DNA of 64,000 nt from NCBI GenBank assembly GCA_964526715.1, contig CAZGMB010000024.1, positions 6,324-70,323 on the forward strand, given 5' to 3'. This document shows positions 40,091 to 43,728 of the stretch, in pieces. Position 1 is the stretch's first letter, and each line of letters starts with the position of its first letter. Under the pieces are notes generated by a model. It was not told the DNA's origin. It did no database searches and worked only from the letters and a program-made list of their open reading frames with translations. The position numbers and the translations under genes are program-made. This stretch comes from an uncultured Aureispira sp. Lineage in GTDB: Bacteria; Bacteroidota; Bacteroidia; Chitinophagales; Saprospiraceae.

Positions 40091-40614
40091 GTGGTAGATT
40101 TAAAGGGAGAAAATTTATACCACCTGCCAAAAACTGGCCTACTCGACCCACTACTGATTTTTCAAAAGAAGGACTGTTCAATATTCTAAATAACAGAATC
40201 GATTTTGAATCTACGGTGATGTTGGATTTATTTGGTGGCACAGGAAATCATAGTTATGAATTTATATCGAGAGGATGTACTGATGTGACCTACGTGGATA
40301 AATTTCCTGGTTGTATTGCCTTTGTTACCAAAACTGCACAGGAATTAGATATACAAGATCAGATAAAAATTGTGAAGTCTGATGTCTTTAAGTTTTTACA
40401 GCATAATGTAAGACAATACGATTATATATTTGCAGGTCCTCCCTACCCTTTGCCCAATCTAAATGCCATACCTGATGAAATATTCAAATACAACACATTA
40501 GCAGATGATGGCCTGTTTGTTTTGGAACACAACCCAAACCATAATTTTAAAAACCATGTTAGATACCTAGAAGAACGGAACTATGGTACTACAATTTTTA
40601 GTTTTTTTAGGTAG
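40078..40614 (+). CDS. rsmD: 16S rRNA (guanine966-N2)-methyltransferase
   Basis: MRIIGGRFKGRKF, TRPTTD, DLFGGTG and FAGPPY motifs. 13-nt overlap with the upstream gene. Confidence 0.85.
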   Translation: MRIIGGRFKGRKFIPPAKNWPTRPTTDFSKEGLFNILNNRIDFESTVMLDLFGGTGNHSYEFISRGCTDVTYVDKFPGCIAFVTKTAQELDIQDQIKIVKSDVFKFLQHNVRQYDYIFAGPPYPLPNLNAIPDEIFKYNTLADDGLFVLEHNPNHNFKNHVRYLEERNYGTTIFSFFR

Positions 40615-40618
40615 ATAT

Positions 40619-41362
40619 TTAAATACCCCTAACTTTATATTGATGATTGGGGTCGTCTACTTTAATAATTTTATCATTTAGATAGTCGGATTCTACCAAT
40701 CCATCTCTCAGCCTTACTATTCTATGTGCATGATCAGCGATATCTGGCTCGTGAGTTACCAAGATTACGGTATTACCAGCATTGTGGATTTTTTCGAAGA
40801 TGCCCATGATTTCCACTGATGTTTTGGTATCCAAGTTACCTGTAGGCTCGTCAGCAAGGATGATTGCAGGGTTATTGACCAAGGCACGAGCTATGGCCAC
40901 TCTTTGGCGTTGACCACCCGAGAGTTCATTGGGTTTATGTTCCATTCTGTCTGAAAGGCCCACCTTATGGAGTGCCTCGGCTGCCTTTTCACTTCTTATT
41001 TTTTTAGAATCACCTGCATATACCAAAGGTAAGGCTACATTGTCCAAAGCAGAAAGTCTAGGAAGCAGATTGAAAGTTTGGAATACGAACCCTATTTGTT
41101 TATTTCTAACTTCAGCAAGGTCTCCATCGGACATCATAGAGACATCTATGCCGTTCAGAATATAAGATCCCGCACTCGGACTATCCAAGCAGCCCAAGAT
41201 ATTCATAAGCGTTGACTTCCCTGACCCTGACGGCCCCATAAGTGCCACATATTCATTTTTATGAATGTCTAAGGTGACCGATTTTAGAGCCTGTATGATT
41301 TCGTCTCCCATCTTGTACATTCTGGAGATTTTGTCTAAGGAAATAATTTTTTGATTAGCCAT
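40619..41362 (-). CDS. ABC transporter ATP-binding protein (MacB/LolD-type ATPase), with no adjacent permease gene
   Basis: Walker [10 protein letters not shown], signature LSGGQRQR, Walker [12 protein letters not shown]. Confidence 0.9.
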
Positions 41363-41451
41363 AATATGCTTATTGAAAATTTGACCGCTAAGATAACAGC
41401 AATTTTCTATTTGATGGCAATTTATAGACCATAAGCATAAATCTATCGCCC

Positions 41452-41990
41452 AAAGTAGTTAGGAAGAAGGTTAAGGTGGAATTGTTGAGTTGGTGGAGAT
41501 GGTGGAGTTGTTGAGTTGGTGAAGATGGTGGAGATGGTTGAGATGGTGAGGTTAAGGTTAAGATTAAGATTGAGATTGATGGAGTTGTTGAGATGGTGGA
41601 GATGGTGGAGTTGGTGGAGATGGTGGAGATGGTGGAGATGGTTGAGATGGTGAAGATGGTGAGGTTAAGATTGAGAAGGATTGTGTTGTTGAATTGTTGA
41701 GATGGTGGAGATGGTTTATTTGGTTGAGTTGGTGGAGATGGTTGAGTTGGTGGAGATGGTTGAGTTGGTGGAGATGGTTGAGTTGTTGAGTTGTTGAATT
41801 GGTTGAGTCGTTGAATTGTTGAATTGGTTGAGATGATGGAGATGGTTTATTTGGTGGAGTTGGTTTAGATGGTGGAGATGGTGATTGAGCGGAGTCGAAA
41901 TCACATTAAAGTTGAGATTAAGGTTGAGATTAAGGTTAAGGTTTAGATGGTGGAGATGGTTTAGTTGTTTAGTTGGTGGAGTTGGTTACA
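41452..41990. repeat. Degenerate 9-nt tandem-repeat array (GGTGGAGAT / GGTTGAGTT / GGTGAAGAT), almost cytosine-free on the plus strand
   Basis: No C at all in 41452-41808 (357 nt), and a single C (41809) up to 41889. Three perfect tandem copies of the 18-mer GGTTGAGTTGGTGGAGAT lie at 41722-41775. Blocks are punctuated by GAGGTTAAGGTTAAGATTAAGATTGAGATT-like segments at 41548-41578, 41661-41680 and 41908-41946. Confidence 0.9.
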
Positions 41991-42060
41991 TTATTCAAAT
42001 TATTTTACAGCTTTACAAATCACACCGCTTTACGATGGTAGCCTTAGATACTCCACTTGA

Positions 42061-43728
<1,668 letters not shown>

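Follow-up and report, generated by a model that had tools for sequence, protein, structure and literature searches.

The intergenic region between lolD and an ABC-F gene in the 64 000-nt stretch of Saprospiraceae DNA analyzed here (hereafter, the window) contains a tandem array that is devoid of cytosine on the plus strand for 357 consecutive nucleotides. This tract quite probably is a VNTR that is driven by slippage and recombination and represents one locus of a BIME/STRR-like mosaic repeat family, which is private to one species and is either neutral or selfish.

Composition and coding status of the tract

The 357-nt C-free run occupies positions 41452-41808 of the plus strand and is the longest such run in the window; the next two, 41810-41889 (80 nt) and 41905-41988 (84 nt), follow on the same strand, set apart by a single C at 41809 and by an island at 41890-41904. 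Elsewhere in the window, C-free runs do not exceed 48 nt, and G-free runs do not exceed 51 nt; given 18.5% C, ∼2e-27 C-free runs of 357 nt would be expected by chance on both strands of the window, in agreement with an earlier note on this DNA that had pointed out a C-free tract far from the background composition. The 9-nt minisatellite with a higher-order structure that the same note had described was recovered both by Tandem Repeats Finder (period 9, 44 copies, 70% matches over 41484-41882) and by a unit parse of the array, which yields ∼32 nine-mers, ∼10 eight-mers of the GTTGAGTT type and three hexamer blocks. Likewise, three copies of the 18-mer GGTTGAGTTGGTGGAGAT are present at 41722-41775, and the array is punctuated by GAGGTTAAGRTT-type blocks in the three places that had been given.

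All six reading frames of the tract contain stop codons, and the earlier judgement that none of them is convincingly coding stands. The G-less strand might nevertheless be read as a Pro/Ser/Thr-rich linker of a surface protein (SPPSQP, TKPTPP), with frameshifts introduced by decay or by sequencing error, considering that a period of 9 nt is divisible by three, that one minus-strand frame reads SPP(S/T)(Q/K)P, and that gene callers place ORFs of 129-164 aa inside such arrays. However, the proline-rich reading switches by turns among all three frames, each of which is interrupted by TAA stops; a search at the tract for a start codon or a signal peptide leading into the G-less strand found none; strains differ by 8-nt units and by a 374-nt indel; and the loci of the family are all intergenic, in varied contexts, with no Pfam hit for the called ORFs. 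The stops, the frame-hopping, the missing start and the non-triplet polymorphism among strains rule out a coding sequence or pseudogene, and the probability that the tract is a decayed linker is negligible. The C-free tract is real, non-coding DNA.

No known structured RNA was detected with the Rfam covariance models either (no match at E<=1 within 40500-42600, on either strand). Zero secondary structure is predicted for the G-less strand, in line with the earlier proposal that a transcript through the tract, G-less in one direction, would be largely unstructured.

Anatomy of the lolD/ABC-F gap

The genes that flank the tract are those named previously, namely, a MacB/LolD-type ABC ATPase gene (start 41362, minus strand) and an ABC-F ATPase gene (start 42115, plus strand). 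Between them, the array resolves into four super-units, each a run of 9/8-nt units (GGTGGAGAT, GGTTGAGTT, GGTTTAGAT, GTTGAGTT and others); at the super-unit ends, GGTGA is followed by a junction and then by hexamers (AAGGTT, AAGATT, GAGATT). The gap consists of the following features, which come from the unit parse unless other evidence is given.

41363-41462, minus strand: unique lolD-proximal flank, with no match elsewhere in the genome and 99/100 positions identical in other strains
41463-41544, plus strand: super-unit 1, 9/8-nt units GGTGGAGAT, GGTGGAGTT, GTTGAGTT, GGTGAAGAT and GGTTGAGAT
41545-41577, plus strand: hairpin-less junction GGTGA/GGTT and hexamer block 1 (AAGGTT AAGATT AAGATT GAGATT)
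41578-41657, plus strand: super-unit 2, nine-mers, chiefly GGTGGAGAT
41658-41680, plus strand: hairpin-less junction and short hexamer block 2 (GGTGAGGTT AAGATT GAGAAGGA)
41681-41879, plus strand: super-unit 3, 9/8-nt units including the three copies of the 18-mer GGTTGAGTTGGTGGAGAT and the single C at 41809
41880-41904, plus strand: hairpin module GGTGATTGAGCGGAGTCGAAATCAC, with the stem GTGATT (41881-41886)/AATCAC (41899-41904) and the loop GAGCGGAGTCGA (unit parse and folding)
41905-41943, plus strand: hexamer/12-mer block 3 (ATTAAAGTT GAGATT AAGGTT GAGATT AAGGTT AAGGTT; Tandem Repeats Finder and parse)
41944-41988, plus strand: super-unit 4, the last five 9/8-nt units
41989-42114, plus strand: unique ABC-F-proximal flank, with a terminator-like hairpin at 42051-42072 and a -7 box at 42087-42094 (motif search and relatives)

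The junctions of super-units 1 and 2 are hairpin-less (GGTGA/GGTTAAG), and that of super-unit 3 is the 24-nt hairpin GTGATT-GAGCGGAGTCGA-AATCAC (41881-41904), the sole C-rich island of the array, for which modest folding energies are predicted, namely, -8.3 kcal/mol (z -1.6) for the plus strand and -4.8 kcal/mol (z -2.5) for the minus strand. In a correction to the earlier note, the island at 41890-41904 is part of a discrete, dispersed hairpin element rather than noise. The left part of the array (super-unit 1) differs among strains, and super-unit 4 is variable in the more distant ones (L212-L216).

The tandem units all lack C on one strand, and amplification of such C-free seeds, combined with the absence of the hairpin from two of the three junctions, would account for the extreme composition of the tract. 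The unit types themselves are probably related because, judging from their sequences, the 9-mer GAGATGGTT is the 12-mer GAGATTAAGGTT without TAA.

Length alleles among strains

Assemblies of the same species were identified by exact-protein look-up with LolD and ABC-F. Their two flanks are, respectively, 99.1% (3214/3244) and 99.7% (1352/1356) identical to those in the window, and the gap between the two genes has the following lengths, which rest on short-read assemblies, so that individual values could be partly mis-assembled.

Window: lolD/ABC-F gap of 752 nt, 1 hairpin
L188/L209 (ENA): gap of 770 nt, 1 hairpin
L210 (JGI 3300005961): gap of 1036 nt, 2 hairpins
L187/L211 (JGI 3300005989): gap of 1144 nt, 2 hairpins

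Two of the length differences are clean indels across direct repeats of 57-61 nt: the L188 allele is equivalent to L187 minus 374 nt, with the junction located inside a 57-nt direct repeat, and L210 lacks 108 nt (12 units) of L187, the overlap at the junction being 61 nt. In the place of the hairpin-less junction of the window (41545-41577), the hairpin GGTGATTGAGCGGAGTCGAAATCAC... is present in both L187 and L210, where it precedes the same GATGGAGTTGTTGAG as in the window. At the left end, at least 5 distinct alleles are represented among 10 contigs; beyond the full alleles listed above, partial contigs contribute at least three left-end alleles along with several right-end ones. Among the four closest full alleles, the right 395 nt do not vary, which could be due to constraint or merely to recency. 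A second locus, the array upstream of mazG on contig C23, is variable as well (259, 278 and 282 nt).

Most of the short-read contigs break in the array, with 8 of the 10 lolD contigs ending within it; at the locus on contig C10, contigs from other strains stop ∼80 nt into the array. Given these breaks and the repetitive nature of the tract, an assembly or sequencing artefact comes to mind. However, the same locus was independently assembled in at least four other datasets; the five independent assemblies (JGI, ENA, Logan and this genome) share the flanks, the unit vocabulary and the right-hand 395 nt, and the units are heterogeneous, unlike a collapsed perfect repeat, which makes an artefact extremely improbable. 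The combination of differing gap lengths with near-identical flanks implies that the tract is real and mutates far faster than the flanks.

The alleles of 752, 770, 1036 and 1144 nt bear out the earlier suggestion of an expansion locus: large indels lengthen, shorten and rearrange the array at a much higher rate than that at which the DNA around it changes. With its head-to-tail units and a copy number that differs among strains between conserved flanks, it has the hallmarks of a VNTR, or bacterial minisatellite. The length changes would be driven by replication slippage and by unequal recombination between the internal direct repeats of the array.

A dispersed mosaic repeat family

The tract had been considered impossible to assign to any repeat class, but a genome-wide search reveals it as a member of a dispersed, species-specific mosaic repeat family with ∼8 loci in the assembly of this genome (5.5 Mb, 150 contigs, 36% GC). 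When the gap is used as a blastn query, the family loci match over positions 41455-41987 only, and the unique flanks match nothing. The family is built of three modules, namely, 9/8-nt units (GGTKDAGWT), 6/12-nt units (AAGRTT/GAGATT) and the 24-nt hairpin GTGATT-GAGCGRAGTCGA-AATCAC, which recur in the order of a 9/8-nt run, then GGTGA with either the 24-nt hairpin or nothing, then 6/12-nt units. The search of the genome for further C-free arrays, one of the checks put forward earlier, yielded C/G-free tracts of the same units in the following places, among others.

C10:1775-2232: C/G-free tract of 458 nt, longer than that in the window
C27:4639-5039: C/G-free tract
C59: C/G-free tracts in two blocks
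C11:86430-86553: C/G-free tract
C23:19705-19936: C/G-free tract

Hexamer-only arrays are found at further places in the genome. The hairpin is present in ∼50 copies that form 32-33 clusters genome-wide, with compensatory stem variants that keep the pairing (GTGGTT/AACCAC and GTGGCT/AGCCAC); it occurs alone, in tandem with a 41-nt period (C102) or after an unrelated 22-nt tandem family (C27:38.4-38.9 kb). At C27:4617-4888, 9-mers, hairpin and hexamers succeed one another in the same order as in the window, three times, with a 120-nt period.

The repeat family is strongly intergenic. By crude ORF calls, ORFs of at least 150 aa account for 82% of the genome, and 12 of the 67 tracts and 16 of the 65 hairpin cores (the latter being loose-core matches) are located inside such ORFs. 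Tracts and hairpins occur in convergent, tandem and divergent gene contexts alike.

Several of the loci have peculiarities of their own. The 22-nt tandem repeat at C27:38460-38900 (GAGAAGCTTGTAAAGTACTYRGA; ∼155 copies) accounts for the commonest 13-mers in the genome and is found at many contig ends (e.g. C22:185, C26:213, C27:261 and C98:335), with several contigs ending in it; on C27, the hairpin of the family comes next, along with a hairpin of a second type (GGCTTCGGCTATCGCTCAGCC, up to three times). The region C102:5087-5500 consists of ∼nine 41-nt units, each comprising the hairpin and a near-identical 16-nt linker, and has a CRISPR-like look, with no unique spacers. At C23:19706-19984 (also in L201-L208), the G-less strand of the 9/6-nt array reaches the mazG start codon; the leader or promoter region of mazG is built of repeat units, and its length differs among strains. 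The ‘genes' for proteins of 129-164 aa that are called within arrays (L187:1682-2119, L210:786-1175, L211:738-1175 and C27:4624-5118) have low-complexity products, VEMVEM… or LNHLHH…, with no Pfam hit, and are almost certainly spurious.

The block or the hairpin could, in principle, be a mobile element of the REP/REPIN or MITE kind that is spread by a RAYT or by the TnpA of IS200/IS605, with the arrays arising as by-products. The dispersal of the hairpin in ∼50 copies with compensatory stem variants, its presence at this locus in one or two copies depending on the strain, the hairpin-bearing and hairpin-less versions of the junction at the same position, the nine Y1_Tnp matches in the genome, and the coincidence of the orientation of 10 of 13 hairpins in tandem-gene contexts with that of the genes are all compatible with this scenario. 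Nevertheless, a mobile element appears unlikely: there is no hairpin core within 1.5 kb of any of the nine Y1 transposase genes, the hairpin has no GTAG or CGTC end tag, its orientation is not biased with respect to the replication-type skew (11:14), no terminal inverted repeats bound the block, the sole long inverted pair being the two promoter stretches described below, and no pair of empty and filled sites with a target duplication was found. The distances from the Y1_Tnp matches rule out an association with RAYT. As for an ordinary MITE-like element, which the earlier note had envisaged as an alternative should many dispersed copies with terminal inverted repeats be found, the dispersed copies are there but the terminal inverted repeats are not: no inverted repeat bounding 41463-41988, no ends shared across loci and no border duplication were detected.

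Distribution among relatives and gene neighborhood

The closest relatives by ABC-F are Saprospiraceae MAGs. Three consecutive 9-mers occur in 84 places in this genome and in none among 24 congeneric and 16 same-order genomes, and the hairpin loop is found in 28 places here, compared with at most 2 in any of these 40 relatives. The repeat family is private to this Saprospiraceae species; the inspection of relatives for C-free arrays, which had also been advised, returned none in the same 24 and 16 genomes. Among 160 related loci found with ABC-F (80 from genomes and 80 from metagenomes), none has an array upstream of ABC-F, and none shows the lolD/ABC-F synteny.

In 10 of the 11 congeners examined (window 40619-42115 compared with L176-L186), the gene divergent from lolD encodes a deoxynucleoside kinase, in some cases with gatC in between, whereas here, the partner of lolD is ABC-F, and the deoxynucleoside kinase gene is on another contig (C27:35876-36499), so that the array occupies a lineage-specific rearrangement junction. 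On the other side of the break (the kinase side, C27:36.5 kb), there is an ordinary gap with no array, which rules out the presence of arrays at both ends of the rearrangement.

The 15-mer of the hairpin loop, TGAGCGRAGTCGAAA, occurs once or twice in a few relatives, at C1:142449 and C1:2272049 of G034 (L219 and L220) and at C27:1748 of G008 (L217); in G034, it lies within an apparent T9SS C-terminal-domain coding sequence (…LLVERSRNEPVFTLYNLTGQ…). These occurrences may be due to chance or may be relics.

Putative flanking promoters

A clear Bacteroidota -7 box (TAnnTTTG), TACCTTTG, occupies 42087-42094, 20 nt upstream of the ABC-F start codon (ATG at 42115); in the relatives L001 and L095, both of which lack the array, the promoter stretch TACCTTTGCrGyCAAATT is conserved. 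For lolD, the promoter call is weak, being a relaxed motif match to a -7 box look-alike, TATCTTAG, on the minus strand (41388-41395 in plus-strand coordinates), ∼26 nt upstream of the ATG at 41362. The distance between the array and the -7 box is 99 nt on the ABC-F side and ∼68 nt on the lolD side, where the box is putative. The segments 41377-41403 and 42079-42105 are 74% inverted copies of each other (…TAnnTTnGCrGyCAAATTT…), which looks like a shared promoter or leader motif. Between the array and the ABC-F -7 box, there is also a terminator-like stem-loop (42051-42072, plus strand; CTCCACTTGAAAATCGGTGGAG with a T-rich tail), which is absent from L001 and L095 and has nothing obvious upstream that would need termination.

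Because the ABC-F -7 box and the weaker lolD look-alike both lie in the unique promoter-proximal flanks of the respective genes, the array, sitting between these flanks and outside the identified boxes, would be spacer DNA, and the earlier description of the array as filling the divergent promoters and 5' regions does not hold, subject to the weak call for lolD.

The location between two divergent genes and the variation in length, by up to 392 nt among near-identical strains, raise the question of a contingency or regulatory VNTR, in which the length of the array would tune or switch the expression of the divergent lolD-type and ABC-F genes through promoter distance, supercoiling coupling between the promoters or a moved upstream element. 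The relaxed match for lolD leaves room for a promoter inside or beyond the array. Nevertheless, such a role is improbable. At 99 nt and ∼68 nt from the -7 boxes, the array belongs neither to a coding sequence nor to a core promoter spacer, where the tracts of phase-variable contingency loci are located, notwithstanding the weak assignment of the lolD promoter; other members of the family lie between convergent genes (C10, C6) or in tandem contexts, places in which one would not expect a promoter; and in relatives, the same promoter stretch precedes ABC-F with no array present. The most probable status of the tract is that of tolerated spacer DNA, neutral or selfish, that would have no dedicated regulatory, RNA or protein-coding role.

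Strand orientation

The raw GC skew is too noisy and is dominated by a coding-strand bias of 0.077, so a coding-corrected estimate was used. By this estimate, the G-rich strand of the arrays tends to coincide with the C-skewed strand (ratios of 13:2 for arrays picked by hand and of 13:5 for a list compiled without bias by a regex), and in tandem-gene contexts, 9-mer arrays present the G-less strand as sense in 5 of 6 cases. This orientation bias is suggestive of some directional process or constraint, which would not be predicted under pure neutrality. The broader proposition, that the arrays are not orientation-neutral, the G-rich strand being kept off the strand in which G is in replication-type excess (13:5) and the G-less strand of 9-mer arrays serving as sense in tandem contexts, is doubtful. 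If true, it would imply either a replication-coupled bias of expansion or selection for long structure-free upstream or leader DNA in the Shine-Dalgarno-less Bacteroidota.

On the contig that includes the window (C24), the coding-corrected skew changes sign near the array, at ∼47.7 kb, from about -0.004 to -0.03 on the left to about +0.013 to +0.045 on the right, an estimate that is weak owing to the few plus-strand genes on the left side. Such a change would fit either a rearrangement junction or a replication landmark.

A possible orientation bias would also fit a structural or binding element, be it a two-tetrad G-quadruplex or other non-B DNA, an array for the titration of a nucleoid protein or a DnaA-like protein, or a source of G-less leaders. 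GG-N-GG-N-GG-N-GG motifs reach a density of 63 per kb in the array, compared with 1.1 per kb in the window, the G-less strand extends to the mazG start codon at C23, and zero structure is predicted for the G-less RNA of the tract. However, the predicted G4-inclusive folding energy of -5.7 kcal/mol is no better than that of shuffled sequences (mean -11), the array unit agrees with the DnaA-box consensus at just 6 of 9 positions, and both the rapid turnover of the array and its absence from all congeners count against a conserved role, so that an element of this kind is very improbable. The reading of the tract as a slippage- and recombination-driven VNTR remains the preferred one.

Implications

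The local weight of these findings is small, as the annotation of the two ABC ATPase genes is unchanged. The array does, however, discriminate very well between strains and is thus of use as a marker in a wastewater-type species of Saprospiraceae that is uncultured or poorly studied. Arrays of this family explain the fragmentation of assemblies of the species at such sites, and the 129-164-aa ORFs that gene callers place within them serve as a warning against spurious gene calls.

Comparison with known repeat systems

A literature search found no published description of intergenic repeat families in Saprospiraceae or Bacteroidetes. Among the known systems, the family resembles the REP/BIME sequences of enterobacteria and the REPIN clusters of Pseudomonas (PMC3184786, PMC3733652, PMC3116915) in that a short extragenic hairpin is present in tens of copies, with compensatory stem changes, forms mosaics with further short motifs and is restricted to one lineage, its copies being solitary, arranged in tandem (41-nt period, C102) or part of larger blocks. 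The palindrome itself agrees with the REP/REPIN type (20-40 nt, imperfect, extragenic, many copies), being 24 nt long with a 6-bp stem, and 49 of the 65 loose cores are outside ORFs of at least 150 aa. In contrast, the conserved GTAG or CGTC tetranucleotide that marks one end of REP/REPIN sequences (PMC3733652) is missing from the ends of the consensus GGTGATTGAGCGRAGTCGAAATCAC, and none of the nine Y1_Tnp matches has a hairpin core within 1.5 kb, unlike a REPtron, in which the cognate RAYT is flanked by repeats. There are only ∼50 copies, and the long 9- and 6-nt tandem arrays that dominate here, with their total strand asymmetry, have no counterpart in BIMEs.

The STRR, reportedly first described by Mazel et al. 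in 1990, are heptamers and thus differ from the 9- and 6-nt units of this family, to which they are unrelated in sequence, which come from a different phylum and are coupled to a hairpin module. The similarity to the STRR of heterocystous cyanobacteria (named in PMC4748335) consists in dispersed short tandem units at many intergenic loci, lineage specificity and the lack of a known function.

The units of the arrays abut, and the 16-nt ‘spacers' on C102 are near-identical to one another, in contrast to a CRISPR array, in which identical repeats alternate with unique spacers of similar length. With the simple-sequence contingency loci of Neisseria and Haemophilus, the tract shares a hypermutable repeat adjoining genes but differs from them in lying outside the coding sequence and the promoter spacer of ABC-F (for lolD, the promoter call is weak) and in having no evident on/off logic. 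Similarly to the MIRU-type VNTRs of Mycobacterium and MLVA loci (e.g. PMC3689786, PMC5056196), the arrays are intergenic, and their copy number differs among close strains via slippage or recombination; unlike the MIRU-type VNTRs, with units of 40-100 nt, the unit is 9 nt long, and the arrays are much longer and more heterogeneous, are organized in super-units and belong to a multi-module family. With its allelic series and indel junctions, this is a well-documented case of mosaic intergenic repeats in which small hairpins are combined with fast-changing 6-10-nt arrays, and such mosaics may be a recurrent, unpublished feature of Saprospiraceae/Bacteroidota genomes.
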